Assembly: GCA_963678065.2 (NCBI GenBank)
Contig: CAXXVZ010000005.1
Span: 1,088,001 to 1,152,000 of the forward strand
Origin: Treponemataceae bacterium
GTDB taxonomy: Bacteria > Spirochaetota > Spirochaetia > Treponematales > Rectinemataceae
Direction: 5' to 3'
DNA length: 64,000 nucleotides
Position numbers and translations under genes: made by a program. Shown here one piece after another: positions 29,972 to 58,853 of this stretch (within the stretch, counting starts at the first letter, position 1; every line of letters starts with the position of its first letter). The notes beneath the pieces are model-generated. The model saw only the letters and a list, made by a program, of their open reading frames with translations. It ran no database searches and had not been told where the DNA came from.

Positions 29972-30382
29972 ACAGAAATTTTACATATCACACTGTGTCT
30001 CTGTATGCCAAGATAATATGCAACTCTTTTCCTGTCAATATCATAGCGTATCATAATATGTTAATATATTTTTTATAATGCTGTCATTTATCTCATACTT
30101 CTATCTCATCCTGATTTCCCGGAAAATTGTAGCTATGAATAAATATGTCTATATTATAAATAGAAATGATTCACCATCCGAGAGCGTTGCATAGCTGTAT
30201 TTGTAGCTATACTTCTTGCCCATGAAAATATGTAACTTCTATTTGGATATGAAGTTACCAATTCCCTAGTTACAATGCGCCGGGAAATCAAGTCTCATAC
30301 GAGAATGTTTATTACAAGTCCGAATTGATAGATTTCGATTTCCACACAAAGCTACTAATTATTATCAACTACTTCCTTCGTT

Positions 30383-30457
30383 TTATCCGAAATTCAGATA
30401 CACGAAATTAGACGCTATCGGGACCGTCATACCCTTCGGCTCGATACTCGAAATTCA
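30383..30457. repeat. Partial copy of the module-boundary repeat
   Basis: TTATCCGAAATTCAG.TACACG.AATTAG....ATCGGG...CCCTTCGGCTCGATAC.CGAAATTCA matches 32117-32192. Confidence 0.75.
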
Positions 30458-30858
30458 TCTACTCGGCAGCTCTTCAAGGCCTCGGCAGACTGTCACGGCC
30501 TCGATGAGCACGCCTCTCCAGCTTGGAAGGCCGGGGTAATAGGCCGACTGCCTCCTAAGCAGTAGGTCATCCCCAAGGGACATCGAACCGCAGTTGCCGA
30601 GATGAAAAGCAGCAGCCCGCAAAGGTACTGCTCGCATCGACCAACCAGGCCCCGCCGCGAACCCGCGACGTAGGCGCTGTGCGCGATGATCGCGCTTGCG
30701 CGTAAGTTCCGGGTTCGCGCATGTCCTCGCGAATAGAAGGCGCGCCAGGACGGCGCGGCCTCGAAGATAGAGCCGCCCGCCCCGCGACTACTGTCGCGAA
30801 GGGGCGGGCGAGGATTGAGGGGCGAATTTAGAGGGGGTCTGACCCCCAGGGCGCGTCA

Positions 30859-31269
30859 TCAGGGGGTTTCACGCCAACGAGTAACAACCCACTTACCTGC
30901 GATCAATGAGATGTCTAGAGTAGCCCACACTCCTATCCCCGCCTGAAGTATATCCTTGCTGTTCTGATCCCTTATAACGAAGGAATAGCGCATATGGATA
31001 ACTCCCGACTTGAAGACATTTGAAAAAACGAACACAGGGAAGATAGTCAGCGCCTTAACCCCTTGCTTCCCATTACTGACTGAGAGAATCGAGTGATATA
31101 TATCATCTTGAATATACTCACTCCTTGGCAATGCTACAGCAGAATCGGAGAGGAATGTCTGCCTCACGGCTTGAATAGTCTTCAACGAAGACAGGTAGCA
31201 GAAGCCGATATAGACGACCACAAGAGCTAGAGCACAGACTGCCATGACCTTAAATGTACTCCTTCTCAT
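30859..31269 (-). CDS. Putative immunity protein 4 (N-terminal signal/TM)
   Basis: Directly downstream of the amidase toxin tip, GAGGTG RBS, hydrophobic N-terminus, low GC. Confidence 0.6.
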   Translation of the reverse strand: MRRSTFKVMAVCALALVVVYIGFCYLSSLKTIQAVRQTFLSDSAVALPRSEYIQDDIYHSILSVSNGKQGVKALTIFPVFVFSNVFKSGVIHMRYSFVIRDQNSKDILQAGIGVWATLDISLIAGKWVVTRWRETP

Positions 31270-31281
31270 GTTGTTATCACC

Positions 31282-31941
31282 TCACGGGTATACCGATGAT
31301 ATGTGAAAGAATATCAACGCATTATCGCCGCCAGAAAGTCCAGTGATTGGTTGATCGTGACGAGATACTGTATGAGCGGAATACGAAACCACTCCATTAT
31401 CTACAGAGGTGACAACTCCAAAGTGATGAACAGTTGCTCCTTCATCACGAGACCATCCGACCAGATCTCCTGGTTGAGTAGGAGTACCCGCAGCCGTATT
31501 CAATAATCCAGGTGAGCTCTCTAGGTAATTAGCAAGCCCGCCAGCTGTTGCCCAGGCGCTTGTGAAAGATCCATTGAAGCGACCAAGAATATCATACGAT
31601 CCGCTAGTAAAGTTCCAATCCGAATTCCGTGGAAGGCCGCCAGCGGCTAGACACTGTGATGCAAAGTTGGCGCAATCGCCACTACCTCGGACAGCGTTCA
31701 CGACTGAAGCGACTCCGCGACTCAAATCATATGCAGGATTAGAACTCAGGTCATACGTGTGCGCATAATCAACAGCGGCTGATCTATCATATACAGCATA
31801 GGATGCACCAGAAGTGTCAGCAGTTATCGTTGAGTATGCTTCGCTTATTGCTTGGGTAGCTTCAGCACTACCGCTGTAATGGTTTAGTGCCTCGTAGAAG
31901 GCTTCCGCATCCAACCCGGACGGATCCGTGAAGGATAGAGG
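31282..31941 (-). pseudogene. Orphan Rhs C-terminus 4: putative amidase (Amidase_6-like) toxin
   Basis: In-frame 'PLSFTDPSGL' junction at the 5' end. YDRSAAVDYA, DCANFASQCL..GG, HHFG, YSAHT motifs. Confidence 0.75.
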
Positions 31942-32116
31942 TCTCTCCCTATTTCCCGATATTGCCTATAGATAAGCCCTGTCCCGCGTGCGTGCTTTAT
32001 GGTTCAGGTCCGCTGTCAGAGATCGCTCACAAGGGTCACTGCTTCCCTTCCGGTTCGTATGATATATCGCCGTGTCCCTGCCCACAAGGGCAGGGAGGTA
32101 GAAGTCCCGTCGCTTG

Positions 32117-32280
32117 TTATCCGAAATTCAGGTACACGTAATTAGCCACAATCGGGTCTGCCTTCCCCTTCGGCTCGATACACGAAATTCATAGGCATGG
32201 AGTCAAGCATTCGGATGGGTGTCTTCCCATAGCCACGGGGCTGCGCGACTACTGTCGCGATGCCCCGCGGCAGTTCTTCA
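32117..32280. repeat. Module-boundary structured repeat, copy A
   Basis: About 140 nt similar to 41130-41270 and 47451-47590. Confidence 0.85.
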
Positions 32281-32353
32281 GCCGTACCATCAAAAACACC
32301 GCGCAACAAAAAAGCAGTTCACGCTGATTCGGATCTTTTCTTGCCTCGGATAC

Positions 32354-32400
32354 ACAAAGGCCGCCCCAGCATACACTGAAGCGGCCTTTGTCTTTTTTTT
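32354..32400 (+). terminator. Intrinsic terminator
   Basis: ACAAAGGCCGC-loop-GCGGCCTTTGT followed by CTTTTTTTT. Confidence 0.8.
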
Positions 32401-32403
32401 CTT

Positions 32404-32465
32404 GCCTAACCTTAAAGTTGAGCTGCAACGCGACACGCGTTGTCAGCTCGAACTTGGCGTTAGGC
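32404..32465 (-). other. Integron-type attC site
   Basis: Minus strand GCCTAAC-GCCAA-GTTCGAGC-TGACAACGCG-TGT-CGCGTTGCA-GCTCAAC-TTTAAG-GTTAGGC: R'', L'', L', R' boxes with two unpaired bases. Confidence 0.85.
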
Positions 32466-32494
32466 TTAGGTATCAGACTCTAAAGGCGTGTCTA

Positions 32495-33019
32495 TCAATA
32501 ATCCTTATAAATCACCTTCAGCATTTTCTTCTCTACATCAAACCAAAGCGAAACATAAGTCTCAGTGACATACGATTTCCCTGTTCCTTTCTCCTTAGCA
32601 AAAAATGAGAGACTAAGCGGAAATTCAATGACTTCATGACTAAGGCCAACGATTTCATCATCAGTTGGAACAACGATATCATATAAGACTTGCCCTATAT
32701 TCCCAAGAATCTTTTTCCCTGTAACAAGTCCCCAGATAGTACGTCTGCAACTATTTTCTGAATAAACATAATAGTATTCGACAACATTCTCTTCTTTTTT
32801 TACATTTGGATTGTACAATTTTGTATCTCTGAATTTGACAGCGATATATGGTTCCCCGAACACCATTGGTATTTGATTAGTATCTTTAGCTCTCAATCCA
32901 AAGTTCATTGGGAACTTGGGTAAATTATCAATTTCTTTGGGATTGAATTCCTGTGAATACACCACCCCCAGGGAAATTGAAATAAGTAGGACAATAAATG
33001 CTAAAAGAGTTCTTGCCAT
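32495..33019 (-). CDS. Putative periplasmic immunity protein 3
   Basis: Overlaps the toxin tip stop, signal peptide MARTLLAFIVLLISISLGVVYSQ, very low GC. Confidence 0.65.
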   Translation of the reverse strand: MARTLLAFIVLLISISLGVVYSQEFNPKEIDNLPKFPMNFGLRAKDTNQIPMVFGEPYIAVKFRDTKLYNPNVKKEENVVEYYYVYSENSCRRTIWGLVTGKKILGNIGQVLYDIVVPTDDEIVGLSHEVIEFPLSLSFFAKEKGTGKSYVTETYVSLWFDVEKKMLKVIYKDY

Positions 33020-33585
33020 ATGATGTATCCTTGACTGGCTGGATTCCTATTACCGCTGAAGGGCGTATAAGTTTTATTGACTACCCCGGACTCAGCATTT
33101 GGCGCGGTCTGTCTCGGATCTTTATTGTGAATTGCTTCCCATGTCGTACCGGGAGCAGAGGCATCCACGATCTGTTTTGTTACTTCATCGCCTATCTGCC
33201 CTACGCCGTAGTTAACATGATCATTTGGCTTTTCATATGAGTAAAAATTCAAAACACCTGCATCACCTTGTCTGTTTGTATTTACATCCTTAAATTTTCC
33301 AACAAAATTCGAGTTTGCCATACCATTTGCAGTTAGGCGGTCAACGTCTGCTCCCATGGCCCTAAGTGAACCTATACCTACACCACTACAATCAGCTTTT
33401 GTTGTTGTGGTTCCCGAGCCATACTCTACGCCAACATATTCTCTAATCTTTTCCGCAAACTGCAAATTTAGGTCTGTGGGGCTTCTTAGTGAATTTGTAT
33501 CCCGATCATAGAATTCATCGCCGTACAGCTGAGCACCTTCAATCTCCCGCAACCCTGTCGGATCTGTGGACTTTACTGGATTCTC
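33001..33585 (-). pseudogene. Orphan Rhs C-terminus 3: NlpC/P60-like (papain-fold) toxin
   Basis: 'NPVKSTDPTGL' junction. Y.G..Y, DCSG and downstream HV catalytic-like motifs. Confidence 0.6.
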
Positions 33586-33793
33586 GCCCCGCTGTTTTTC
33601 TTCTCCACGAGCCACCTCCCCGGTTTCGGTTTTTTTGGTCTCAGCGAGCGAGGCATAGAGCAGATACAGCCACAGCGCCTCGGTGAAGGTCTGCAGCCAC
33701 CTCCGGAGAAACCCTTCCACTACGAGCAGTTCCACAGTCAGCTTGACGTGCTGCTGTGGCAGGAGAAGGGGCGCGCACCGCATGAAAGAGATT

Positions 33794-34795
33794 CTATCCT
33801 GGCCGACCTTCCGGGACAAGGCGGGCGAGCCTTTTGATATAGTCCCTGTCCACCTCCGCATAGATCGCCTGCTCCCTCGGGTGGTAGCGCCGATAGATCC
33901 GCTTAAGGTTCTCCGTCACGACGTGCGTGTACCGCGCCGTCGTCTCGACTCCTGCGTGACCCAAGAGTTCCTGGATCTGGCGCACGCTCACGCCGCGGCT
34001 TAAAAGATGGGTCGCGGTGGCATGCCGGACCGAGTGGGCCGACAGGGTCGGGTCGTCCATACCGAAGCGCCGCAGGAGGGTTCGGAAACGCTCACTCACA
34101 CTCGCTGGCCTCACATGGCTCCCTGTCCTCGGTCCGCAGGTCCCCGTGAATATCCAGGCCTGCGGATCATGGGCGCGGTTCCCGAGGTACAGAAGCAGCA
34201 CATCCCGCGCGACCTCCGAGATCGGCACGAGCCTGTCCTTGTCACCCTTGCCCCGCACGCGCATGATCCGGCGCTCGAAGTCCACGTCGCCCACCGTAAG
34301 GCCCGCAACTTCGCCCACACGAAGGCCAGCCGCGTACACGAGCTCGAAGAGCGCGCGATCCCGCAATCCCTGCGTCGTCGTCGTATCGAGCTCGTCAAGA
34401 AAGCGCTGCATCTCCGTTTCTGTGAACGCGCGGCGGCGTACAGACTCCGGGGGGAGCGGATCACCCAGTTGCCCGGCGGGGTTGTCGTCGATAAGCCCTG
34501 AGCGGTACAGACAGGCGTACAGAAGCCGTACCATCCCGAAGCGACTATTGACCGTCGTGTGCTTAAGCCGTTCTCCCGTCGTCTTCGACAGTCGCGCCGC
34601 GAGATCCTCGCGGTAGCCAAGGAGCTGCGCCGGCGTGACCTGACGTATATCGCCTATCGCGTGCTCTTCGGTCCAGCGGTAATACCCTATGATCGTAGCA
34701 CGCGCGTGGGCCATGTAGCACGCGCCGATCCGCCTGGCCACGAGGTCCTCGCTCACCAGGTGCAGTCCCAAAGCTTGTACGGCCTCGCCAGTCAC
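33794..34795 (-). CDS. Tyrosine recombinase (XerC/D-like), catalytically complete
   Basis: GLRVGE, GKGDKDR, HSVRH, LLGH, TARY. Confidence 0.93.
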   Translation of the reverse strand: MTGEAVQALGLHLVSEDLVARRIGACYMAHARATIIGYYRWTEEHAIGDIRQVTPAQLLGYREDLAARLSKTTGERLKHTTVNSRFGMVRLLYACLYRSGLIDDNPAGQLGDPLPPESVRRRAFTETEMQRFLDELDTTTTQGLRDRALFELVYAAGLRVGEVAGLTVGDVDFERRIMRVRGKGDKDRLVPISEVARDVLLLYLGNRAHDPQAWIFTGTCGPRTGSHVRPASVSERFRTLLRRFGMDDPTLSAHSVRHATATHLLSRGVSVRQIQELLGHAGVETTARYTHVVTENLKRIYRRYHPREQAIYAEVDRDYIKRLARLVPEGRPG

Positions 34796-35826
34796 GATCG
34801 GAACTCCCAGCTTCCGCGCGGGTGCGCCGCGTCCACCGCCGCGCGCAGGCTCTCCTTGCTCCGCCGCAGGTAGGTCTGTGTGCTGCCTAAGTTCCGAAAC
34901 CCGACCAAGATTTGCACGTGCCGAAGGTCGCAGCCTGACTCGACCAGGTGCGCCCCCAGGCTCGTCCGAAAGCCGTAGCTTGTGATCATCGGCAATCCCT
35001 CACTCGCACAGGTCTCGGCCAAAACCTCGTTGATCACCTGAGTCAGCCTCCCGTGCCCCGCGCCGAAGAGCGTGTGCGCATACCTCCGCTCGTACTCGTG
35101 AAACACAAGTTTCCGTCGCGGCAGATACTCCTTGAGCACCCCCGCCGCGTAGCTCGTCAGGAAGGCCGTCCGTCCCTGCCCCGAGCGCCCGCTCCGAACC
35201 CACACTGTCCGCTCGCGAAGATCAAGGTCAGCCGGTTCGAGCGCGGCCGCCTCACTCGCGTGCAAGCCCGCAGCGTACATGAGTTCCGCCGCCACGTGCA
35301 CCCGATAGGTCTTTACCACCTTCCACCACGGCCGCACCTCATCGAAGCGCGACAGGGCCGCAAGGAGTCTCGCCATCTCCTCGACCGTCAGCGCATTCTC
35401 CGACAGATGCTCTCCCACCCGCACCCGACGGATCTCGCGGAAGGGATTCGTCCGTATCGTCCCCGTCTTCACGAGGTAGTCGAAGAACCGCCTGGCCGCT
35501 TTCAGATGGTTGTTGATCGTCCCCGCGTTGTACGGCCGCCCTGTCGCTGCTGTCATCGTCGACAGCTTCACCTGGTAGCGCAGAGCCTCAGCAAGCCCTA
35601 CCTCCGCAACCTCGAGTTCCTCCGCTTCCAGCCATGAGCCGACGGTCCGCGCAAGCGTGCGTATCGACTCGTAACCCTGATCAGTTACCTTCGGCTGTTC
35701 TTCAGCGAGAAAGGCTTCGATCTGCGCCGAAAGCCGTACGGAGTATATGCCATCCACGTTCGCCTCTCTTCCCCGCCGGAATTGCGCGACCAGATTGGTA
35801 ATTCCTTGTCGCGCCAGGGGCAACAC
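34792..35826 (-). CDS. Tyrosine recombinase-like protein with degenerate active site
   Basis: GLHASE, GRSGQGR, YGFR, LVGF, TQTY; SAM-like N-terminal region. Confidence 0.85.
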   Translation of the reverse strand: MLPLARQGITNLVAQFRRGREANVDGIYSVRLSAQIEAFLAEEQPKVTDQGYESIRTLARTVGSWLEAEELEVAEVGLAEALRYQVKLSTMTAATGRPYNAGTINNHLKAARRFFDYLVKTGTIRTNPFREIRRVRVGEHLSENALTVEEMARLLAALSRFDEVRPWWKVVKTYRVHVAAELMYAAGLHASEAAALEPADLDLRERTVWVRSGRSGQGRTAFLTSYAAGVLKEYLPRRKLVFHEYERRYAHTLFGAGHGRLTQVINEVLAETCASEGLPMITSYGFRTSLGAHLVESGCDLRHVQILVGFRNLGSTQTYLRRSKESLRAAVDAAHPRGSWEFRS

Positions 35827-36306
35827 TCGCTATCGGTAGTCAGTGCCCAGTTCTGCCCAGACTGACCAGATTTATGCCGTTGATCCGGAGAGTCGTTCTG
35901 CCATCGCCTCAGGACTCGGAATCATCGACAGATCCACCGCCCCAATCTCCGCGTCCTCGCGAAGCCGGTAATAGGCTCGCGAGCGTTCCGAGCCCCCTCG
36001 CGCAATCGACACGTAGTCGTACTCGACGAGCTGCCGCAGACTCTGCTTGATCCATGTATGCCCCAGCCCGGTCAGCTCCCGTACCTGCCGCTGCGTGAAG
36101 CTCACCTCTTCAGCCCGTAAGTGCTGCGCTCTCGCCTCGCGGCCCACCCACGTACGCAACTCGCCGTACAGTGTGTAGCGTAATCTAGAAATACCCGAAA
36201 AGATCAAACTGGAATGGACAGAAAAATCGTCAGAATTCCCCATAAAAATCGTGGGGAGGAAGTGGCGATGAAAACCCTGTAGGATTTATCCAGCAGGGAG
36301 GAGGGA

Positions 36307-37779
36307 ATGCTCCACATGAACCAGATTGATCACGTCAAAGATTTGCAAAGGCAGGGCTATGGTCCCTGCGAGATCGCTGAACGGCTGGGAATCGATCGAA
36401 AAACAACAGCGAAGTATATGAAGCAGGAGGACTTCAACGCCTCTACCGAAGTGCCCCGCGAGCTTCCCTCGAAACTTGATCGATGGAAGCCAACCATCGA
36501 TCAATGGCTTGCCGAAGACCTGAAGATGCGTTTCAAGCAGCGCCATAGGGCCATGAGGATCCATACAAGGCTTCTGGAAGAACACCCCGACGACTACGAC
36601 TGCTCATATCCTTTGGTCCAGCGCTATGTCAAACGGCGGAAAGCGGCCAGGAAAGAAGCGGAGGGGTTTCTTGAGCTCGTCTGGTCGAAAGGCGAGGCGC
36701 AGGCCGATTTCGGAGAGGCAGAACTGATCGAGGCCGGCGTTCGAAGGACCGTCAAATACCTGACCTTGACCTTTCCCTTCAGCAATGCGGGCTTTACGCA
36801 GTGTTTCAGCGGCGAGACGGCCGAATGTGTTTCCCAGGGGCTCAAAGATATATTCAGCCACATAGGTGGCGTTCCCGCCAGGATCGTGTTCGACAACGCA
36901 ACGGGCGTAGGCAGACGGGTCCGCGACCGTGTCACCTTGAGCCAGCTTTTCCTTCGGTTCAAATGCCACTATGGCTTTGCGGTCAGCTTCTGCAACCCTG
37001 CTTCAGGCCATGAGAAAGGGAATGTCGAAAACAAGATCGGCTATGCGAGAAGGAACTTCTTCGTTCCTCTGCCGGTTGTGGACAGCCTCGAGTCTTGGAA
37101 CAAGGAATTGCTCGAAAAAGCGGCGAAAGATCATGACCGATCGCATTACAAGAAAAATCAGAATATTGCCGAGTTGTTCGAAGAGGAGCGGCAGTCTTTA
37201 GGGCTTTTGCCGGTGCGAAGCTTCATCGTCGAGCGTTTCGAGCGAGTATCCACGGATGGCTACGGAAAGTTCTGCATTGACGGAAAGCATTGGTATTCAA
37301 GCGCTCCCGAATGCGGGAACAGCGAAGTGACCGTAGGGCTCAAGGCGCATGAACTCGTCGTGTACCGCAGCGAAGGAACCCCGTTGTGTGTCCACCGAAG
37401 AGTCTATGGCGACGAGCGGAGCGACAGCTGCGATTACCGAACAAGCCTTGAAACCCTCATGAAGAAGCCTGGCGCATGGATCAATAGCGCCTTTAGGGCA
37501 GGCGTTGACGATACCATACGAGTCGCGATGGACGAACTCTCAAAGCCTGATCTGCGCAATGTGCTGAAAGTCCTGGTGAAAAGCAGTACGACCTTTGGGT
37601 TCGACGTCGCCATGACCTCGCTTGAGGAAGCGATTGCCCGAGGCCGGCTGGACAGTTTCAGCCTTAGCGCGGTTGCTTCCAGGGTCGCCTTTGATGGGCT
37701 TCACGGCATTCCCTCCGAGGGACCCGACCTCGGAGCCTACGATCGCGCCCTCATGAGCAACTCGGAGACCGTGTCATGA
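36307..37779 (+). CDS. istA: IS21 transposase
   Basis: N-terminal HTH, AQADFG, FDN, EKGNVE DDE motifs. Confidence 0.95.
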   Translation: MLHMNQIDHVKDLQRQGYGPCEIAERLGIDRKTTAKYMKQEDFNASTEVPRELPSKLDRWKPTIDQWLAEDLKMRFKQRHRAMRIHTRLLEEHPDDYDCSYPLVQRYVKRRKAARKEAEGFLELVWSKGEAQADFGEAELIEAGVRRTVKYLTLTFPFSNAGFTQCFSGETAECVSQGLKDIFSHIGGVPARIVFDNATGVGRRVRDRVTLSQLFLRFKCHYGFAVSFCNPASGHEKGNVENKIGYARRNFFVPLPVVDSLESWNKELLEKAAKDHDRSHYKKNQNIAELFEEERQSLGLLPVRSFIVERFERVSTDGYGKFCIDGKHWYSSAPECGNSEVTVGLKAHELVVYRSEGTPLCVHRRVYGDERSDSCDYRTSLETLMKKPGAWINSAFRAGVDDTIRVAMDELSKPDLRNVLKVLVKSSTTFGFDVAMTSLEEAIARGRLDSFSLSAVASRVAFDGLHGIPSEGPDLGAYDRALMSNSETVS

Positions 37780-38555
37780 GAAAAGCGCGTGTCAATCGTG
37801 CCGAACTGCGCAGCGAAATCTCCGTACTGCTGCGCAAGATGGCCTTCAGCCAGACCGCGGTAAAGATCTGCGAGGAAGAGGCCAAGGCACCCCAGGAAGA
37901 GTTTCTCCTGAAGATCCTGAAGCGAGAGATGGCTAACCGCGACGATGTCCGCAGGGCACGATTCCTTCATGAAGCGGCCTTCCCCGTCTACAAAACCTTC
38001 GAGGGCTTTGATTTCTCCTGCGTGAAGCTGCCGCCGGCGCTTTCGAAACAGGAAATGATGACCACCCAGTTCGTCGCCGAGAAGAAAAACTTGGTGCTTT
38101 ACGGCCCCGTTGGAACTGGAAAGACACATCTTGCCACAGCCCTTGGCGTCACCGCGTGCTCTCGCACCTTCCGTACCAGGTTCTTTACCGCTGCAGAGCT
38201 GGTGGTAAGGCTTTCCGAAGCCCTTAAGGAAGGCTCGCTTGAGCGGCTTGTTATGTCCATCGCTCGGGCTGATCTCTTGATCATAGACGAATGGGGCTAT
38301 GTCCCCGTCGACCGGCAAGGAGCCCAGCTCCTGTTCAGGATAATTTCCGATTCCTATGAGCGCCGAAGCGTTATTCTCACGACCAATCTTGAATTCTCCA
38401 AATGGGGGACAATCTTCACGGACGATCAGATGGCTGCCGCCATGATCGACAGGCTTGCCCACCATGGTCACATTATTCTCTTCGAAGGTGAAAGCTACCG
38501 GATGAAACACGCACTCATGCGGCAGAAAGGCCAGGCACAATTACCCACCGGCTGA
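37776..38555 (+). CDS. istB: IS21 helper ATPase
   Basis: GPVGTGKTHLA, LLIIDEWGY, TTNL.FSKW, DRLAHH. Confidence 0.95.
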   Translation: MRKARVNRAELRSEISVLLRKMAFSQTAVKICEEEAKAPQEEFLLKILKREMANRDDVRRARFLHEAAFPVYKTFEGFDFSCVKLPPALSKQEMMTTQFVAEKKNLVLYGPVGTGKTHLATALGVTACSRTFRTRFFTAAELVVRLSEALKEGSLERLVMSIARADLLIIDEWGYVPVDRQGAQLLFRIISDSYERRSVILTTNLEFSKWGTIFTDDQMAAAMIDRLAHHGHIILFEGESYRMKHALMRQKGQAQLPTG

Positions 38556-40046
38556 TGGGTGTTTTTGTACGATTTTTTCGGGTATTTCGCCTTGACGAAA
38601 CACAGTACAGCCCCACCGCCCCCGCGGGTAGCTCCCGTACCGTCGAGCTCATCACCCCCTCCACCATGATCGTGTACGCTACCCGGTAGTCCTCCAGGTC
38701 GCAGCGGATGAAGCTCACTGCCCCCTCACGCTCCTCACGCTTCTGGTACTGCCTCAGAAAGCACACGCTCGCGATCAGATCCAGAAACCGGTCATGGTCG
38801 CGGCGGCTCCGCATGAGACTCGTCGGAAACCCCAGGTGCACCGCAAAGTCGTTCACGATCGCCACCTTCCGCACCAGCCGCTGCGCCGCCTGGTGCGCCC
38901 GTATGATCCGCTCCGTCTCTCCGCGCCCAGTCCGCAAGCGTTCCAGCGAATACTTCTGCCGCTGCGCCTCGTGGATCCGCGCAGTCTGGATCTTCGACTC
39001 GTCCGCGTTCACCACGAAGCACCGGCTCGCGTTCTCCGGATTCACCGCATGGCTCGTCCCCGACAGCACGCTCGACACCACCACCGGCGTCCTGACCACC
39101 CGGCTCTGCATCGTCCCCGTCTCCGGGTCCTTCATCGTCACCAGCCTCGACAGCTCCTTGCCCGACAGCATCTCCCGGATCTGGTGCTCCACCACCTCCC
39201 CGTGCACCGCTTCTCCCAGAATCAGAAACTTGTGGCTCAGGTCCTCGATGTAGTTCAGTGCCTGGTCCGACAGGCTCGTCACCGCCACCACCTCCTCGGG
39301 CGGCATAAGCTTCCGCACCGTCTCCACGAGATAGCTCTTTCCCGCCGCGGACTGCGACAGAATCAAGACCGAGATCGGATCGTCCAGCTTCCGGCTCGAC
39401 GCGCACAGGTACAGAAGCTGCTTATTCAGGTCCTCTCCCACGTAGCCCAACGCGCTGAGATCCTCCACGATCCGCTCAAACAGGCGCGGGTCGCGCAACA
39501 GCGACAGCCCCAGCTCGCGGTCGGCCGCGCTCATCGGGACGCCCGCCTTCGTATTTCCCCGCCGCAGGGCCTCGTCGCGCTCGCACTCGAGATTCTCAAG
39601 GATCAGCACGAGGTCCTTCTGTGCCCGCGCGAGCTCCCACCCGAAGCTCCGCGCCACCGCCTGCGCAAAGCCGCCCCTCGCCTTCGCCGCGTACAGGTCC
39701 ACCGTGTCGTAGTAGCTCATCATCCCTGCACTCGCCCGGATCGCCACCTTCAGGCTCGTCACAAACAGCTGCCTGACCCCGCCTATGCGGTACGTCATCG
39801 CCCCCACACGGAACACATGGAACAGCCCATCCCGCTCGACGTGCAGCTCCGGTCCATCCGTCTCGTCCATGAAGCCGGCCGCTTCGCCCGGTCTCGCCTC
39901 CTCCTCTGCTGCCCCTGCCGGGGGCGACTCCGGGGGAACTGCGTCACCTTCGGTGACGACCTTCCCCGCGGAGTTGGGGGGAAGAAACGCGGCCCCAGGA
40001 AGGGACTCATCAGCGACCGCGAGTACCCGCTCGCTCTGGTCTCCCC

Positions 40047-40331
40047 TCATACCGCACCACGCCGCCCGGAGCGCCGCTCCCGGTCAAAGCTCTTCTTCGC
40101 CTCGTGCACATAGCTGTTCACCTGCCCATACGCCGAGCGAAAGGCGTGCAGGTTCACCACCGCCCGCTTCCCCCAAAACTCACCCTGCGCCCGCCCAAGC
40201 CCCTCTCCCCGGAAGCTCATTCGACAGGCCAGCGATTCCGACACCGGAATGCAGCTCACCTCCTCCAGCGTACACCCTGCCATGATCAGATACGCCGCTT
40301 CGTACAGATCCGTTACCTCCGCAGTTTCCAT
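40047..40331 (-). CDS. Small conserved element protein (~94 aa; possibly DUF5659-like)
   Basis: AAGGAGG RBS before METAEVTDLYEAAYL. Stop overlaps the ATPase start. Duplicated at 46369..46653. Confidence 0.65.
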   Translation of the reverse strand: METAEVTDLYEAAYLIMAGCTLEEVSCIPVSESLACRMSFRGEGLGRAQGEFWGKRAVVNLHAFRSAYGQVNSYVHEAKKSFDRERRSGRRGAV

Positions 40332-40494
40332 CCCCCGCCTCCTTTTTGCGGGCAATCTCGTCATCTCCCTGTCCTGTATGCTATCCTGTCTTCGCGTCAT
40401 GACGAGGTTCCCTCGTTGTGTCCTCGCCCGTTTCCCCGAAGCATCCACCACGACCTCAGGGGAAACGGGCTCCTTTGTACCTGACATAAAACCA

Positions 40495-40569
40495 TGTCAA
40501 GTACTATTATTGGTTTTGAGTATTATACATCATGTATTATATCGTCAAGCGGTAGGGTATACTTTTTCT
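40495..40569. promoter_or_regulatory. Divergent control region of the element
   Basis: AT-rich. Palindrome ATACAT-C-ATGTAT (40525-40537). TATACT at 40558 just before the HTH start. Confidence 0.55.
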
Positions 40570-40977
40570 ATGCCACAGCGACCGAAATATATTCTGCCGG
40601 ATATCTCCGAATCCTCTCACAATGTCGGTCAAAATATTGCCGCACTGCGCAAAAAAAAAGGACTCAGCCAAAAAGAACTGGCTCTGAAAATCGGCATCAC
40701 CCAGGCCTTGCTTTCACACTATGAAACCGCCCGTCTGAGTATTCCCGTCGAGGTTGTCATTCAGATTTCCATTTCGTTGAACGTACACGCGGATGTGATA
40801 TTGGGAATCGGAGCATCGGCACCGCTCGACGATGACTCGCCAAGCCGCAGAATTGTGCAGCGGGCGAAACTGATCGAGCGTCTTCCCGCCTTCGACCAGA
40901 AAGCCCTGCTCAAAACCATCGACAATGCGTTGAAAGGCGCCGGCATCACAACGGAAGATCCAAAAGTCTCTCACTGA
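40570..40977 (+). CDS. XRE-family HTH repressor
   Basis: IAALRKKKGLSQKELALKIGITQALLSHYET. Confidence 0.9.
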   Translation: MPQRPKYILPDISESSHNVGQNIAALRKKKGLSQKELALKIGITQALLSHYETARLSIPVEVVIQISISLNVHADVILGIGASAPLDDDSPSRRIVQRAKLIERLPAFDQKALLKTIDNALKGAGITTEDPKVSH

Positions 40978-41054
40978 CTGATGCTTCTGCTCCCTGCCCT
41001 CGACGACGGCACCATCAAACACAGTCTCCCGACTGCGCCTAATTCTCGGTTGGC

Positions 41055-41270
41055 GGGTCGCGCCGCCTCACGCTGCGCGTGGAGTGGCGCTCCCCCAAAT
41101 CCGCTTTCGCGGACTTCGCCAACCTACGCATTAGCCACAATCGGGTCTGCCACTCCTTTCGGCTCGATACACGAAATTCACAAGTATGGAGTCACGCATT
41201 CGGATATTTGTCTTCCCATAGCCAAGGGGCTGCGCGTCGAAGACGCGATGCCACGCGGCAGTTCTTCAGC
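41055..41270. repeat. Module-boundary structured repeat, copy B
   Basis: Homologous to 47377-47590 and 32141-32280; hairpins conserved despite sequence change. Confidence 0.85.
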
Positions 41271-41332
41271 TTGCCATTCACGCCTTGAAACAGGCTCGCA
41301 GCCGAACTCGGATCTTTTCTTGCCTCGGATAC

Positions 41333-41378
41333 ACAAAGGCCGCCTCAGCATACACTGAAGCGGCCTTTGTCTTTTTTT
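41333..41378 (+). terminator. Intrinsic terminator
   Basis: Same hairpin and T-tract as 32354-32400. Confidence 0.8.
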
Positions 41379-41381
41379 CTT

Positions 41382-41444
41382 GCCTAACCTTCCGCTTAAA
41401 CGGCGAGGGCTTTTGGCCCGAGTCCGGTTGAAGCCGCGTTAGGC
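41382..41444 (-). other. Integron-type attC-like site
   Basis: Minus strand GCCTAAC-GCGG-CTTCAACC...GTTTAAG-CGGAAG-GTTAGGC. The immunity gene's TAA lies inside R''. First spacer is 1 nt short of canonical. Confidence 0.72.
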
Positions 41445-41708
41445 TTTGGGGTCAGGCCCCAAGGGGGCTTCTTTACGAAAAATGCTCAAATCCGACTTCA
41501 TTTGCCTAAGGAGAAAACTGCATGCCTCAGCCTCTGAGGAGAATTGCTTAATGTCTTTTTTTTGCCCTCGTTCAAAGAAGTATATCTCCCAACATCCACC
41601 TTCCTCGATTAGGCATGTTCGATCTTCGCGAAATAGCTTGTTGAATGAATACCACGAACTCGGTACATTCAGTTGGTTCAATTCTCGTTCGAGCTCTTTT
41701 ATATTCAT
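41439..41708 (-). CDS. Putative cytoplasmic immunity protein 2
   Basis: ATGA overlap with the TNT-like tip. WEIYFFERG..F.SE.EAC pattern. Confidence 0.7.
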   Translation of the reverse strand: MNIKELERELNQLNVPSSWYSFNKLFREDRTCLIEEGGCWEIYFFERGQKKDIKQFSSEAEACSFLLRQMKSDLSIFRKEAPLGPDPKA

Positions 41709-42346
41709 TTCAACACCTCGACCAATTTAGCATCGATAAGGCTTCCCAAAGTGCTACGGAACATGTATTGAATACCACCACCGGCACTTCCATAATATGG
41801 CCCGGCAATACCAGCTTTTACTTCTAGATCGATCTTCGATCTATATGCAGTGTATTCACCAGAGTTCCATGGGGGTAATGCTCTTTCTTCTTTTGGAGTC
41901 CCTATCGGAGAAGCATATGAACCACGTGGATTCCCATATCTATCAAACGTCGAACCTGCGGGTAGGGTTGTTTCCCATGAAGCGCCAAACAGAAAGCCAT
42001 CAAACAAAGGATAGCAGACGTCTTCGACCAATGCTGGCGGTGGCGGCAATATCCCGGCTGTATTTAGCCCACCATATAGCCCAGTTACAACTGCAACAGC
42101 GGCGGTGGCAATATTATTAGTTGCACTAGTTACTACGTTTTTAGCAAGCTTCGCAGCCGATTCAAGCGAATTTATTATATTGCTAACAACATTTTCAGCA
42201 TCCGGCGGATCGCTCGAAGGAACAATATTCCCGGTACCAAGTCCTGATATTAGGCTGCTATCGGACGTCTCGCCCGTTGATTCGAACCGTTTCAGATCCC
42301 CCATCCCTGCCAACCCCGTGGGATCCGTGAACTTTACTGGATTCTC
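41705..42346 (-). pseudogene. Orphan Rhs C-terminus 2: TNT/DUF4237-like NAD glycohydrolase toxin
   Basis: 'NPVKFTDPTGL' junction. LP.G..FDRYG...GSY.SP.GTP..ERALP...P.YG..GGG.QY signature. Confidence 0.85.
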
Positions 42347-42554: not shown

Positions 42555-43556
42555 CTATCCTGGCCGACCTTCCGGGACAAGGCGGGCGAGCCTTTTGATA
42601 TAGTCCCTGTCCACCTCCGCATAGATCGCCTGCTCCCTCGGGTGGTAGCGCCGATAGATCCGCTTAAGGTTCTCCGTCACGACGTGCGTGTACCGCGCCG
42701 TCGTCTCGACTCCTGCGTGACCCAAGAGTTCCTGGATCTGGCGCACGCTCACGCCGCGGCTTAAAAGATGGGTCGCGGTGGCATGCCGGACCGAGTGGGC
42801 CGACAGGGTCGGGTCGTCCATACCGAAGCGCCGCAGGAGGGTTCGGAAACGCTCACTCACACTCGCTGGCCTCACATGGCTCCCTGTCCTCGGTCCGCAG
42901 GTCCCCGTGAATATCCAGGCCTGCGGATCATGGGCGCGGTTCCCGAGGTACAGAAGCAGCACATCCCGCGCGACCTCCGAGATCGGCACGAGCCTGTCCT
43001 TGTCACCCTTGCCCCGCACGCGCATGATCCGGCGCTCGAAGTCCACGTCGCCCACCGTAAGGCCCGCAACTTCGCCCACACGAAGGCCAGCCGCGTACAC
43101 GAGCTCGAAGAGCGCGCGATCCCGCAATCCCTGCGTCGTCGTCGTATCGAGCTCGTCAAGAAAGCGCTGCATCTCCGTTTCTGTGAACGCGCGGCGGCGT
43201 ACAGACTCCGGGGGGAGCGGATCACCCAGTTGCCCGGCGGGGTTGTCGTCGATAAGCCCTGAGCGGTACAGACAGGCGTACAGAAGCCGTACCATCCCGA
43301 AGCGACTATTGACCGTCGTGTGCTTAAGCCGTTCTCCCGTCGTCTTCGACAGTCGCGCCGCGAGATCCTCGCGGTAGCCAAGGAGCTGCGCCGGCGTGAC
43401 CTGACGTATATCGCCTATCGCGTGCTCTTCGGTCCAGCGGTAATACCCTATGATCGTAGCACGCGCGTGGGCCATGTAGCACGCGCCGATCCGCCTGGCC
43501 ACGAGGTCCTCGCTCACCAGGTGCAGTCCCAAAGCTTGTACGGCCTCGCCAGTCAC
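42555..43556 (-). CDS. Tyrosine recombinase (XerC/D-like), catalytically complete
   Basis: Same protein sequence as 33794..34795. Confidence 0.93.
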   Translation of the reverse strand: MTGEAVQALGLHLVSEDLVARRIGACYMAHARATIIGYYRWTEEHAIGDIRQVTPAQLLGYREDLAARLSKTTGERLKHTTVNSRFGMVRLLYACLYRSGLIDDNPAGQLGDPLPPESVRRRAFTETEMQRFLDELDTTTTQGLRDRALFELVYAAGLRVGEVAGLTVGDVDFERRIMRVRGKGDKDRLVPISEVARDVLLLYLGNRAHDPQAWIFTGTCGPRTGSHVRPASVSERFRTLLRRFGMDDPTLSAHSVRHATATHLLSRGVSVRQIQELLGHAGVETTARYTHVVTENLKRIYRRYHPREQAIYAEVDRDYIKRLARLVPEGRPG

Positions 43557-44587
43557 GATCGGAACTCCCAGCTTCCGCGCGGGTGCGCCGCGTCCACCGC
43601 CGCGCGCAGGCTCTCCTTGCTCCGCCGCAGGTAGGTCTGTGTGCTGCCTAAGTTCCGAAACCCGACCAAGATTTGCACGTGCCGAAGGTCGCAGCCTGAC
43701 TCGACCAGGTGCGCCCCCAGGCTCGTCCGAAAGCCGTAGCTCGTGATCATCGGCAATCCCTCACTCGCACAGGTCTCGGCCAAAACCTCGTTGATCACCT
43801 GAGTCAGCCTCCCGTGCCCCGCGCCGAAGAGCGTGTGCGCGTACCCCCGCTCGTAGCCCCTGAACACAACCTCACGCCGGCAGAGATACTCCTTGAGCAC
43901 CCCCGCCGCGTAGCTCGTCAGGAATGCCGTCCGCCCCTGCCCCGAGCGCCCGCTCCGAACCCACACCGTCCGCTCGCGAAGATCAAGGTCAGCCGGTTCG
44001 AGCGCAGCCGCCTCACTCGCGTGCAAGCCCGCAGCGTACATGAGTTCCGCCGCCACGTGCACCCGATAGGTCTTTACCACCTTCCACCACGGCCGCACCT
44101 CATCGAAGCGCGACAGGGCCGCAAGGAGTCTCGCCATCTCCTCGACCGTCAGCGCATTCTCCGACAGATGCTCTCCCACCCGCACCCGACGGATCTCGCG
44201 GAAGGGATTCGTCCGTATCGTCCCCGTCTTCACGAGGTAGTCGAAGAACCGCCTGGCCGCTTTCAGATGGTTGTTGATCGTCCCCGCGTTGTACGGCCGC
44301 CCTGTCGCTGCTGTCATCGTCGACAGCTTCACCTGGTAGCGCAGAGCCTCAGCAAGCCCTACCTCCGCAACCTCGAGTTCCTCCGCTTCCAGCCATGAGC
44401 CGACGGTCCGCGCAAGCGTGCGTATCGACTCGTAACCCTGATCAGTTACCTTCGGCTGTTCTTCAGCGAGAAAGGCTTCGATCTGCGCCGAAAGCCGTAC
44501 GGAGTATATGCCATCCACGTTCGCCTCTCTTCCCCGCCGGAATTGCGCGACCAGATTGGTAATTCCTTGTCGCGCCAGGGGCAACAC
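43553..44587 (-). CDS. Tyrosine recombinase-like protein with degenerate active site
   Basis: Near-identical to 34792..35826. Confidence 0.85.
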   Translation of the reverse strand: MLPLARQGITNLVAQFRRGREANVDGIYSVRLSAQIEAFLAEEQPKVTDQGYESIRTLARTVGSWLEAEELEVAEVGLAEALRYQVKLSTMTAATGRPYNAGTINNHLKAARRFFDYLVKTGTIRTNPFREIRRVRVGEHLSENALTVEEMARLLAALSRFDEVRPWWKVVKTYRVHVAAELMYAAGLHASEAAALEPADLDLRERTVWVRSGRSGQGRTAFLTSYAAGVLKEYLCRREVVFRGYERGYAHTLFGAGHGRLTQVINEVLAETCASEGLPMITSYGFRTSLGAHLVESGCDLRHVQILVGFRNLGSTQTYLRRSKESLRAAVDAAHPRGSWEFRS

Positions 44588-44632: not shown

Positions 44633-46372
44633 TTATGCCGTTGATCCGGAGAGTCGTTCTGCCATCGCCTCAGGACTCGGAATCATCGACAGATCCACCG
44701 CCCCAATCTCCGCGTCCTCGCGAAGCCGGTAATAGGCTCGCGAGCGTTCCGAGCCCCCTCGCGCAATCGACACGTAGTCGTACTCGACGAGCTGCCGCAG
44801 ACTCTGCTTGATCCATGTATGCCCCAGCCCGGTCAGCTCCCGTACCTGCCGCTGCGTGAAGCTCACCTCTTCAGCCCGTAAGTGCTGCGCTCTCGCCTCA
44901 CGGCCCACCCAGGTCCGAAGCTCGCCATACAGCCCCACCGCCCCCGCGGGTAGCTCCCGCACCGTGCTCGCAAGCACCCCCTCCACCATGATCGTGTACG
45001 CGATCCGGTAGTCCTCCAGGTCGCAGCGGATGAAGCTCACTGCCCCCTCACGCTCCTCGTGCTTCTGGTACTGCCTCAGAAAGCACACGCTCGCGATCAG
45101 GTCCAGAAACCGGTCGTGGTCCCGCCGGCTCCGCATGAGACTCGTCGGAAACCCCAGGTGCACCGCAAAGTCGTTCACGATCGCCACCTTCCGCACCAGC
45201 CGCTGCGCCGCCTGGTGCGCCCGTATGATCCGCTCCGTCTCTCCGCGGCCTGCCCGCAAGCGTTCCAGCGAATACTTCTGCCGCTGCGCCTCGTGGATCC
45301 GCGCAGTCTGACCTCTCGACTCGTCCGCGTTCACCACAAAGCACCGACTCGCGTTCTCCGGATTCACCGCGTGGCTCGTTCCCGACAGCACGCTCGACAC
45401 CACCACCGGCGTCCTGACCACCCGGCTCTGCATCGTCCCCGTCTCCGGGTCCTTCATCGTCACCAGCCTCGACAGCTCCTTGCCCGACAGCATCTCCCGG
45501 ATCTGGTGCTCCACCACCTCCCCGTGCACCGCTTCTCCCAGAATCAGAAACTTGTGGCTCAGGTCCTCGATGTAGTTCAGTGCCTGGTCCGACAGGCTCG
45601 TCACCGCCACCACCTCCTCGGGCGGCATAAGCTTCCGCACCGTCTCCACGAGATAGCTCTTTCCCGCCGCGGACTGCGACAGAATCAAGACCGAGATCGG
45701 ATCGTCCAGCTTCCGGCTCGACGCGCACAGGTACAGAAGCTGCTTATTCAGGTCCTCTCCCACGTAGCCCAACGCGCTGAGATCCTCCACGATCCGCTCA
45801 AACAGGCGCGGGTCGCGCAACAGCGACAGCCCCAGCTCGCGGTCGGCCGCGCTCATCGGGACGCCCGCCTTCGTATTTCCCCGCCGCAGGGCCTCGTCGC
45901 GCTCGCACTCGAGATTCTCAAGGATCAGCACGAGGTCCTTCTGTGCCCGCGCGAGCTCCCACCCGAAGCTCCGCGCCACCGCCTGCGCAAAGCCGCCCCT
46001 CGCCTTCGCCGCGTACAGGTCCACCGTGTCGTAGTAGCTCATCATCCCTGCACTCGCCCGGATCGCCACCTTCAGGCTCGTCACAAACAGCTGCCTGACC
46101 CCGCCTATGCGGTACGTCATCGCCCCCACACGGAACACATGGAACAGCCCATCCCGCTCGACGTGCAGCTCCGGTCCATCCGTCTCGTCCATGAAGCCGG
46201 CCGCTTCGCCCGGTCTCGGCTCCTCCTCTTTTGCCCCTGCCGGGGGCGACTCCGGGGGAACGTCGTCACCTTCGGTGACTGCGTTCCCCGCGGAGTGGGG
46301 GGGAAGAAACGCGGCCCCAGGAAGGGACTCATCAGCGACCGCGAGTACCCGCTCGCTCTGGTCTCCCCTCAT
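44633..46372 (-). CDS. P-loop ATPase related to the C-terminal part of mobile-element primase/helicases
   Basis: Walker A-like SQSAAGKS, SRKL..P, SRC...DES..QT..IH..QR, C-terminal winged-helix-like segment. No zinc-finger or toprim domain visible. Confidence 0.7.
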   Translation of the reverse strand: MRGDQSERVLAVADESLPGAAFLPPHSAGNAVTEGDDVPPESPPAGAKEEEPRPGEAAGFMDETDGPELHVERDGLFHVFRVGAMTYRIGGVRQLFVTSLKVAIRASAGMMSYYDTVDLYAAKARGGFAQAVARSFGWELARAQKDLVLILENLECERDEALRRGNTKAGVPMSAADRELGLSLLRDPRLFERIVEDLSALGYVGEDLNKQLLYLCASSRKLDDPISVLILSQSAAGKSYLVETVRKLMPPEEVVAVTSLSDQALNYIEDLSHKFLILGEAVHGEVVEHQIREMLSGKELSRLVTMKDPETGTMQSRVVRTPVVVSSVLSGTSHAVNPENASRCFVVNADESRGQTARIHEAQRQKYSLERLRAGRGETERIIRAHQAAQRLVRKVAIVNDFAVHLGFPTSLMRSRRDHDRFLDLIASVCFLRQYQKHEEREGAVSFIRCDLEDYRIAYTIMVEGVLASTVRELPAGAVGLYGELRTWVGREARAQHLRAEEVSFTQRQVRELTGLGHTWIKQSLRQLVEYDYVSIARGGSERSRAYYRLREDAEIGAVDLSMIPSPEAMAERLSGSTA

Positions 46373-46653
46373 ACCGCACCACGCCGCCCGGAGCGCCGCT
46401 CCCGGTCAAAGCTCTTCTTCGCCTCATGCACATAGCTGTTCACCTGCCCATACGCCGAGCGAAACGCACTCAGGTTCACCACCGCCCGCTTCCCCCAAAA
46501 CTCACCCTGCGCCCGTCCAAGCCCCTCTCCCCGGAAGCTCATTCGACAGGCCAGCGATTCCGACACCGGAATGCACCGCACCTCCTCCAGCGTACACCCT
46601 GCCATGATCAGATACGCCGCTTCGTACAGATCCGTTACCTCCGCAGTTTCCAT
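46369..46653 (-). CDS. Small conserved element protein
   Basis: Copy of 40047..40331. Confidence 0.65.
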   Translation of the reverse strand: METAEVTDLYEAAYLIMAGCTLEEVRCIPVSESLACRMSFRGEGLGRAQGEFWGKRAVVNLSAFRSAYGQVNSYVHEAKKSFDRERRSGRRGAV

Positions 46654-46891
46654 CCCCCGCCTCCTTTTTGCGGGGAATCTCGTCATCGTCCTGTCCTGTA
46701 TGCTATCCTGTCTTTGCGTCATGACGAGGTTCCCTCGTTGTGTCCTCGCCCGTTTCCCCGAAGCATCCACCACGACCTCAGGGGAAACGGGCTCCTTTGT
46801 ACCTGACATACAACCATGTCAAGTACTATTATTGGTTTTGAGTATTATACATCATGTATTATATCGTCAAGCGGTAGGATATACTTTTTCT

Positions 46892-47299
46892 ATGCCACAG
46901 CGACCGAAATATATTCTGCCGGATATCTCCGAATCCTCTCACAATGTCGGTCAAAATATTGCCGCACTGCGCAAAAAAAAAGGACTCAGCCAAAAAGAAC
47001 TGGCTCTGAAAATCGGCATCACCCAGGCCTTGCTTTCACACTATGAAACCGCCCGTCTGAGTATTCCCGTCGAGGTTGTCATTCAGATTTCCATTTCGTT
47101 GAACGTACACGCGGATGTGATATTGGGAATCGGAGCATCGGCACCGCTCGACGATGACTCGCCAAGCCGCAGAATTGTACAGCGGGCGAAACTGATCGAA
47201 CGTCTTCCCGCCTTCGACCAGAAAGCCCTGCTCAAAACCATCGACAATGCGTTGAAAGGCGCCGGCATCACAACGGAAGATCCAAAAGTCTCTCACTGA
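46892..47299 (+). CDS. XRE-family HTH repressor
   Basis: Same protein as 40570..40977. Confidence 0.9.
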   Translation: MPQRPKYILPDISESSHNVGQNIAALRKKKGLSQKELALKIGITQALLSHYETARLSIPVEVVIQISISLNVHADVILGIGASAPLDDDSPSRRIVQRAKLIERLPAFDQKALLKTIDNALKGAGITTEDPKVSH

Positions 47300-47376: not shown

Positions 47377-47590
47377 GGGGAGCGCCGTCCCAAGCCGTGC
47401 TTGGGAGAGCGCTCCCCCAAATCCGCTTTCGCGGACTTCGCCAACCTACGCATTAGACGCTATCGGGTCTGCCTTCCCCTTCGGCTCAATACTCGAAATT
47501 CACAAGTATGGAGTCAAGCATGCGGATGGTTGTCTTCCCATAGCCAAGGGGCTGCGCGACTACTGTCGCGATGCCCCGCGGCAGCTCTTC
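47377..47590. repeat. Module-boundary structured repeat, copy C
   Basis: Homologous to copies A and B. Confidence 0.85.
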
Positions 47591-47662: not shown

Positions 47663-48271
47663 TCAACCAGTCAGTGTTTTTTCAAAATTTACACCAGTTA
47701 TTTTTTTCTTCTGAATAGCCTTTTTTAGTTTTTCACTTACATAAAGGCCAGACGTAATCTTCCAAAGACTGTGATGTGCAGGCTTATGGAAAACACTGAA
47801 TTTTTCAACCTTATCTATAGAAAAGCACGGTTTCATAATCCGATCGGTACCTCGGACATACATTGTTTTTTGCACATCGATAACATCAAGCATTTTTGAG
47901 AATCGTAAAATAAAGTATATGCGCTGTTCTCCCCCACCATTTATTTTTGCTCTTATCCAATTAATTCCTTCATTACCAGATAAGTTTTCTTCAATGACAA
48001 CCTTTAGCCTCTCAGAAAATAAGGGCCAAGCCAAACTATTCGGTAAATAGTCGATCCATAGTTCTTTGATTTCTGAAAGGTCAGAGGACCTAATAAGCCC
48101 ATCTCCCTCTTTCGTCAATTTCACCAATGAAAACTCAAATGGCATTTCAGAAACACCATCGATCTCTGAAATCAACTCATGTGCCAACCGAGTTCCTTCT
48201 GGTGCAAACGCACTTGCTACTGGCGTGGAATCTGCACCACCAAATAGATAGTAATTCATCATTGCCACCAA
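47663..48271 (-). CDS. Putative immunity protein 1 (Imm11/DUF1629-like)
   Basis: Overlaps the rhs stop. DYL.N...PLFSERLK..I and LYVSEKLK..I...ITGV.F patterns; low GC. Confidence 0.7.
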   Translation of the reverse strand: MVAMMNYYLFGGADSTPVASAFAPEGTRLAHELISEIDGVSEMPFEFSLVKLTKEGDGLIRSSDLSEIKELWIDYLPNSLAWPLFSERLKVVIEENLSGNEGINWIRAKINGGGEQRIYFILRFSKMLDVIDVQKTMYVRGTDRIMKPCFSIDKVEKFSVFHKPAHHSLWKITSGLYVSEKLKKAIQKKKITGVNFEKTLTG

Positions 48272-58830: not shown

Positions 58831-58853
58831 GAACAGACTCTCCTTACCGTAGC

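Follow-up and report, generated by a model that had tools for sequence, protein, structure and literature searches.

Integrative elements can insert in a gene and supply a replacement for its 3' end, as exemplified by SXT in prfC and by Mx8 with intP/intX. In the R64 shufflon, the C-termini of PilV are exchanged by the Rci/sfx system, in which a tyrosine recombinase inverts a fixed set of segments. Since the description of C-terminal displacement in 2009, it has been an open question by what route rhs and cdiA genes gain a new tip yet keep the old one with its immunity gene. For orphan-tip arrays and C-terminal displacement, the available portions of four papers invoke homologous or homology-facilitated illegitimate recombination and propose a circular intermediate (PMC2935791; PMC4927057; PMC5727410; PMC5361080). 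Integrases beside orphan tips receive only passing, untested remarks in the portions of the literature covered.

The locus described here lies in a window of 64,000 nucleotides, the whole stretch of DNA that was analysed, within a genome of 5.27 Mb. The features of an Rhs polymorphic toxin locus are present, namely the TIGR03696 Rhs core, DPxG, variable tips (AHH, TNT, Amidase_6) and Imm11/Imm26 immunity genes. The array is arranged in the order rhs, tip 1, immunity gene, element, tip 2, immunity gene, element, tip 3, immunity gene, mini-element and tip 4 (Table 1). Its repeating unit consists of a tip, an immunity gene and an element body; the units are linked to recombinase genes and join at a fixed boundary and a short core, with the reading frame preserved. 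Each full element harbors an HTH gene, a PF27228 helicase-like gene and two tyrosine recombinase genes. A second rhs copy, located just beyond the window in the opposite orientation, is followed by a different tip, an Imm26 gene and the same left-end module. From sequence comparison, the motif at the joints is likely to be the attachment core at which small integrative elements, by means of a tyrosine recombinase, exchange the toxic tip of rhs.

Table 1. Features of the rhs array, with positions in the window.
Feature	Position	Strand	Details
rhs1 with tip 1 (AHH nuclease), 1848 aa	48259..53805	-	Rhs_assc_core at residues 1587-1663
J1 (attL-like), proposed 11-bp core TTCACAGATCC	48827..48837	-	exchange point between 48838 and 48837
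Immunity gene 1 (Imm11)	47663..48271	-	
Conserved left-end module	47400..47590	-	copy or remnant after each of five immunity genes
HTH_3 (XRE-type) regulator, divergent	46571..47299	+	domain at residues 130-183; later true start probable
orf146	46369..46809	-	conserved in related elements; no family match
579-aa PF27228 P-loop protein	44633..46372	-	
Tyrosine recombinase xer1	43553..44587	-	PF00589; degenerate catalytic positions
Tyrosine recombinase xer2	42555..43556	-	PF00589; canonical R-K-H-R-H-Y
J2 (attR-like)	42321..42346	-	arm GAGAATCCAGTAAAG at 42346-42332, then core TTCACGGATCC at 42331-42321
Displaced tip 2 (TNT-family domain) and small probable immunity gene (41439-41708)	41439..42331	-	
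Element 2, 97-99% identical to element 1	33571..41391	-	PF27228 gene split by IS21 copy (36172-38605)
J3	33560..33585	-	element arm at 33585-33571, then core TCCACAGATCC at 33570-33560
Displaced tip 3 (no family match) and probable immunity gene (32495-33019)	32495..33570	-	
Gene-less mini-element, ~480 bp	31933..32413	-	left-end module and ~110-bp right-end module ending GGGAGAGACC
J4	31922..31947	-	arm GAGAGACCTCTATCC, then core TTCACGGATCC
Displaced tip 4 (Amidase_6) and probable immunity gene (30859-31269)	30859..31932	-	left-end remnant behind, 30383-30458

Several additional features accompany the array. Following the tip and Imm26 gene of the second rhs copy (L001:8470-10500), the left-end module is succeeded by a ParE-type toxin gene, a transposase-like ORF and a tRNA-like sequence, and the element body and older tip are gone. 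The IS21-family insertion in the helicase-like gene of element 2 is identical to a copy at C5:796684-799116, and the low-GC stretch at 29900-30300, probably a miniature insertion element, contains a 24-bp inverted repeat (30112-30135/30267-30290) and a 184-bp segment identical to C5 786780 and 842886. In sequencing run X7, additional loose ends at 44937 and 46879 suggest further insertions in the sample. Between the two divergent rhs genes lies a type II secretion-like cluster (54599-63774, minus strand, and L001:1738-2208) whose translations, examined by eye, include a secretin, an ATPase, an F-type membrane protein and a pilin-like protein; both Rhs proteins begin with a signal-peptide-like N-terminal stretch and may be exported by this cluster. 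The right ends of the two full elements (42332-42622 and 33571-33861, minus strand) contain an open frame of ~95 codons that continues in frame into the displaced tip. The displaced tips might be translated behind this element-encoded leader, and similar open leaders are present in L060 and L064. An Rfam scan of 29.5-49.5 kb yields no match at gathering level.

The junction pattern TYCACRGATCCSWCNGG has four exact matches in the window, all on the minus strand (31916-31932, 33554-33570, 42315-42331 and 48821-48837), and no extra match appears at two or fewer mismatches. Shuffled windows contain on average 0.75 matches at this tolerance and 2 of 100 shuffles reached four, a figure that is not an independent test since the pattern was built from the same four sites. 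Throughout the genome, the exact 17-mer pattern is found only at these sites. All four junctions translate in frame as xTDPxGL, and the GGATC coordinates given for them in the original prediction (48827, 42321, 33560 and 31922) are all correct. A fifth junction, J5, belongs to the second rhs copy (L001:7373, outside the window) and reads GCCACGGATCCCACCGG, departing from the consensus at the first base. Across J1-J5, the directly repeated core is 11 bp long and imperfect, with one fixed start base. The element-side sequence GAGAATCCAGTAAAG, predicted to be fixed, is present at two of the three element-side junctions (J2 and J3), but the arm in front of J4 is GAGAGACCTCTATCC, which forms the right end in a related type of element.

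The position of the exchange point is revealed by the pattern of differences around the junctions, with offsets counted from the G of the Asp codon and -1 denoting the base just before it. Over ~2,920 bp upstream, the two rhs genes show 4 mismatches, after which the next differences are at -6, -5 and -1; for J2 and J3, the 1,300 bp upstream are free of mismatches and the first differences are at -5 and -1. The rhs side and the element side differ at -8 and share only the G at -7. In run X1, a groundwater metagenome, a contig with 8 differences in 470 nt from the element ends exactly at 42332, which corresponds to -7; given a depth of just 4.5, the contig may end there by chance, an unlikely coincidence at this base. 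On the basis of these comparisons and this contig end, alignment places the exchange point 6 nt ahead of the Asp codon, at the boundary of -7 and -6, with the shared G as its margin of uncertainty. A unitig branch lies at 48838, next to J1. The mapped base is also the start of the consensus in the original prediction, and the att core is therefore likely to be the first 11 bases of that consensus, the xTDP codons. The longest exact in-register match between any rhs-side and any element-side junction is 12 bp, an identity too short for RecA.

These results retain one part of the original prediction and displace another. The exchange point does fall within rhs codons, at a fixed base and with the frame kept, but it is not inside DPxGL, given that the mapped edge precedes the Asp codon and that the x-G-L codons vary freely by tip. 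Nor is DPxGL the general target, as some relatives join between RF and VTPDT and others at the first D-P-I-G motif or at non-Rhs toxin motifs. 

Synonymous-site usage was compared between element junctions and control rhs sites. The 15 junctions, five from this genome and ten from other loci, are those at which the element carries almost no rhs fragment; L189 and L088 were left out as their sequence ends at the junction. The controls comprise 47 sites of rhs type, one per genome, in genomes that belong to the same order and lack any xer2 profile match at E<=1e-75. They were picked by the pattern Y-x-x-N-N-P, are mostly of lower GC and may hide unassembled elements; two element carriers (L210, L224) were excluded, and L205 has no usable flank, such that 47 of 48 were used. 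GAT encodes Asp at 11/15 junctions and 33/47 controls, GATC is present at 10/15 and 33/47, and GGR encodes Gly at 14/15 and 42/47 (p=1 for each). In contrast, CACRGA is found at 10/15 junctions versus 5/47 controls (p=5e-5), or 5/10 versus 5/47 when this genome is excluded (p=0.01), and a third-position C at codon -2 (Tyr/Phe/His/Ser/Ala) at 12/15 versus 13/39 (p=0.003), with all p-values overstated as 5 of the 15 junctions come from one genome, the tips are related and their GC is unlike that of the controls. Taken alone, neither Thr ACR (11/11 versus 14/21, p=0.07) nor Leu TTR (10/11 versus 7/10, p=0.3) is significant. The enrichment of CACRGA is suggestive of a synonymous-site constraint beside the exchange point.

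The original prediction, which proposed such a comparison with element-free rhs genes, is thus supported as to a constraint, which CACRGA suggests, and fails in where it was expected, as GAT, GATC and GGR occur at the control rate. The pattern that it describes, with Asp always GAT and a GATC palindrome preserved, also fails to extend to L057, the closest related element, which has GAC; L058 has GAT without GATC. The palindrome was rejected as a conserved feature and reflects ordinary codon usage. Symmetric cores seen by eye (AATCC...GGRTT around a spacer from -6 to +2; ATCCR-N10-YRGAT) are not claimed, with GGR and Leu TTR at control levels. A family pattern search detects only this genome and one match with 1 mismatch among 69 genomes, and no match in viral contigs.

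The two recombinases of the element differ in their catalytic residues. In xer2 all six are intact, and in xer1 four are changed (R>H, K>R, H>Y, H>F), with the second Arg and the Tyr retained. Three of these residues are lost in the closest relative, L057, and the other 23 aligned homologs are canonical; the xer1 copy here may be decaying. As a separate observation, the catalytic loss in xer1 (43553-44587 and 34792-35826) is limited to the lineage without the usual right-end module at J2/J3, and in this lineage, represented here and by L057, catalysis by one recombinase is possible. The recombinases score 125 and 188 bits in the XerC/XerD equivalog models (cut-offs ~330), which sets them apart from the chromosomal XerC/XerD-dif system, and 48 and 88 bits in the integron integrase model TIGR02249 (cut-off 265), which, judged on the integrase, sets them apart from the IntI type. 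Alignment of xer2 against viral sequences yields matches at 25-35% identity. The PF27228 protein is homologous to the C-terminal part of enterobacterial CHC2/Toprim primase fusions (36% identity) and the primase part is absent; it has no match in 50,697 phage records, and its alignment has none in the PDB. Relaxase, type IV secretion and virion genes are not found among the scanned element ORFs.

The nearest named relatives of the element are Treponemataceae/Spirochaetes MAGs, a kinship that marks the host as a spirochaete, and a genome scan with a single protein detects 5 loci. PF27228 protein matches are present in 29 of 401 Spirochaetota genomes, often as tandem copies 7-16 kb apart, and in 37 plasmid-database records. 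Among 34 metagenomic xer2 loci with a complete gene end, a tally that omits L062 and L083 (which run off the contig) and L066, L080, L094 and L095, 24 have a DPxG-type motif within 1.3 kb; of the remaining 10, several lie on contigs that stop short, and the tips of L075, L078 and L093 seem to belong to other families. The right-end module of the mini-element is also found in elements from other metagenomes, and the ~110-bp J4-type module ending GAGAGACC recurs in L057-L061, L071, L082 and L189. In six of the closest elements of this type, the tip frame is open for just 8-18 codons upstream of Asp, and therefore no rhs core fragment is carried. Motifs within this module (31950-32060, minus strand; L057, L059, L061, L071, L082, L189) include a TTGACA-like sequence, CACGCACGC and CTATAT, which are candidates for arm-type binding sites or for an outward-facing promoter that would serve the displaced immunity gene. 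A sigma-70 promoter scan of 31850-33900 finds 4 sites against 2.8 expected, none of them within the module.

The codon motif at the join varies across subfamilies and the design is constant, with a sharp boundary followed by a core of 11-18 bp. The core common to rhs and element in G268 is 18 bp long, follows RF at V-T-P-D-T-V and lies 90 bp upstream of DPxG. In Paraburkholderia, an fha gene and both element ends share CAGACTGCGAT to the right of a sharp boundary, and in G061 a shared core lies to the right of a sharp boundary in a large non-Rhs protein. The match in G458, which is inverted, covers 33-37 bp across N-P-I-K-Y-T-D-P-D-G. Targets have shifted during evolution, as Treponema-like loci show a comparable element end linked to various rhs motifs. 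Homologous recombination probably also reshuffles the arrays of relatives, because many have an open frame of 45-150 codons with rhs core sequence after xer2 and because the copies in G345 are identical through DPSGH.

Further arrangements are seen in individual loci. The element junction and the rhs/orphan sites are in inverted orientation in L187-L188 (G458) and L053-L054 (G216), which would allow shufflon-like switching of tips by inversion. The same element type is followed by non-Rhs tips with their own conserved junction motifs in L075, L077, L078, L091, L093, L037-L039 (G281) and L046-L047 (G061). Tandem HTH-primase-XerC-like elements lie behind cdiA/fha and rhs in an Enterobacter plasmid (L253), Paraburkholderia (L254) and E. 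coli (L255-L262); gene-by-gene annotation reveals SymE in the E. coli elements and a DinJ/RelE-type pair in the Enterobacter element. A tblastn search of the window for SymE gives no match.

An HTH-SymE-primase-XerC-like element is present behind rhs in 55 of 5426 E. coli genomes. Its recombinase shares 31% identity with that of the element described here and represents a distant subfamily. In the 8 regions examined, the boundary lies at the first D-P-I-G motif. Two strains share the tip RKCSSSR, joined at the same base; one has it on rhs and the other has it behind the element. In all 14 distinct tips, the core codons CCG ATA GGG are invariant, and the later invariant residues that have a codon choice, including all of DPxGL, vary synonymously. 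By this comparison, the E. coli codons are the clearest evidence that DNA, and not only protein, is conserved at such a join. The MP1/R12 pair of strains differs by one unit, whose end is not mappable.

In the most likely mechanism, the element would form a circle whose right end is linked to a tip. The predicted-active xer2, with xer1 probably serving here as a non-cleaving partner, would recombine the tip-joined end with the matching rhs codons; the new tip would thereby continue the rhs reading frame, and the former tip with its immunity gene would end up behind the element. The ~11 bp to the right of the boundary (YYCACRGATCC, codons x-T-D-P) would most likely constitute the strand-exchange or overlap region and the start of the right arm, with identity strongest at the 3' side and mismatches tolerated at the first two bases. 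These two bases vary (T/G/C and T/C/A), which is unusual for a homology-dependent overlap and counts against reading the motif as an attachment core. The array would arise by repeated insertion followed by decay, and the element would be replicated by its helicase-like protein and have a route between cells. No excised circle or empty-site joint is detected in four public runs, for which contigs, which drop rare forms, were searched. The only extra joint at J1 in these runs is the second rhs copy, and the depth of the element is ~2x that of the tip, as expected for two chromosomal copies; runs X5, X7 and X8 possibly come from the same source as this organism and are not independent. A circular 8.8-kb Shigella record carries the end of an upstream element; it was rejected as proof of excision at an att site, and repeat collapse or homologous recombination fits better. 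Small circular plasmid records from Lonsdalea and Leptospira are ambiguous as to excision.

The elements could insert site-specifically with the overlap on the other side of the boundary. In this unlikely arrangement, 6-8 bp at ~-13 to -7 (P-L-S / P-V-K codons) would be exchanged without homology, as in the coupling sequences of Tn916 and CTnDOT, and xTDP would be a binding arm only. Such an overlap is consistent with GAGAGACC-type elements, in which the 7 bases after the conserved end vary but retain a P-[LV]-x pattern as if derived from rhs, and with L088, where 6 bases separate GAGAGACC from TTCAC, compared with 7 at J4. However, the 7 bases left of the boundary are unmixed in this genome, with GCTCTCG on both rhs genes and AGTAAAG on both elements, and the rhs-side and element-side flanks are unmixed in the 8 E. 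coli regions. In addition, G268, Paraburkholderia and E. coli all have the identical core to the right of the boundary. 

RecA-dependent or homology-facilitated illegitimate recombination with gene conversion between paralogs is a distinctly doubtful explanation, in which the recombinase and helicase genes are passengers and the motif is kept as the protein sequence DPxG. Conversion has occurred, as indicated by the near-identical rhs copies and near-identical elements, the long core fragments after xer2 in many relatives fit such exchanges, and GAT, GGR and TTR remain at control levels; this is also the published model for rhs arrays in the available portions of PMC2935791 and PMC5361080. Illegitimate joins should scatter, yet J2, J3, J4, the run X1 contig and 8 GAGAGACC-type loci join in the same register with at most 12 bp of exact identity, and protein conservation cannot explain invariant CCG ATA GGG beside free synonymous variation. 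A core centred on a preserved GATC palindrome inside DPxGL is highly improbable. While GATCC is present at all 5 junctions of the genome and at the loose end from run X1, GATC is no more frequent than in controls, GAT is already the codon for Asp before Pro in 4034 of 6588 cases in the long ORFs of this genome, L057 has GAC, and the mapped edge is upstream of Asp. 

If the motif is indeed an attachment core, it would explain how bacteria build long arrays of spare tips. We lean towards a widespread, undescribed class of 5-9 kb elements, consisting of HTH, primase/helicase and one or two XerC-like recombinase genes, that would trade polymorphic-toxin warheads in Spirochaetota and Proteobacteria, including commensal E. 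coli. Each subfamily would have its att site in conserved codons of the carrier (Rhs xTDP, DPIG or VTPDT; FHA/CdiA; large Leptospira-type proteins), and some lineages may have one active recombinase. Such elements would provide the missing enzymatic mechanism for many orphan-tip arrays. With a mapped att site, a candidate enzyme and commensal E. coli carriers (MP1, R12), the question of tip acquisition becomes testable, and a frame-preserving recombinase with coding sequence as its target is of interest as a tool for domain swapping. The full-text literature searched, to which most subscription journals and supplements are external, contains no description of the element or att site, and the available portions of PMC6287321, PMC13183296, PMC2935973 and PMC11278526 hold nothing further on either.

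The locus shares attributes with several known systems. Similar to SXT/prfC and Mx8, the att site is inside codons and the frame is kept. In those elements the replacement restores or trims the same protein, whereas here the tip is exchanged for another toxin domain that comes with an immunity gene of its own, and the element shows no relaxase, conjugation or capsid genes. The R64 shufflon likewise combines a tyrosine recombinase with short codon-overlapping sites and a change of C-terminus. In contrast with the shufflon, the junctions are in direct orientation (4/4 in the window on the minus strand), each unit brings recombinase(s) and a helicase-like gene of its own, and the source of new tips appears to be external, although G458 and G216 do have inverted arrangements. 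Integrons and, in the available portion of PMC3482391, XerC/D-adjacent polyimmunity loci also grow by sequential insertions that push older units downstream. Unlike integrons, the elements are below the integron-integrase cut-off, carry one recombinase set per unit and insert inside the toxin gene. In layout, the locus also resembles the rhs/cdiA orphan-tip arrays, in which, as far as the available portions of those papers describe, a full-length carrier with tip and immunity gene is followed by displaced tip-immunity pairs; unlike the models published in those portions, each tip here travels with a recombinase-helicase element and joins at one base.
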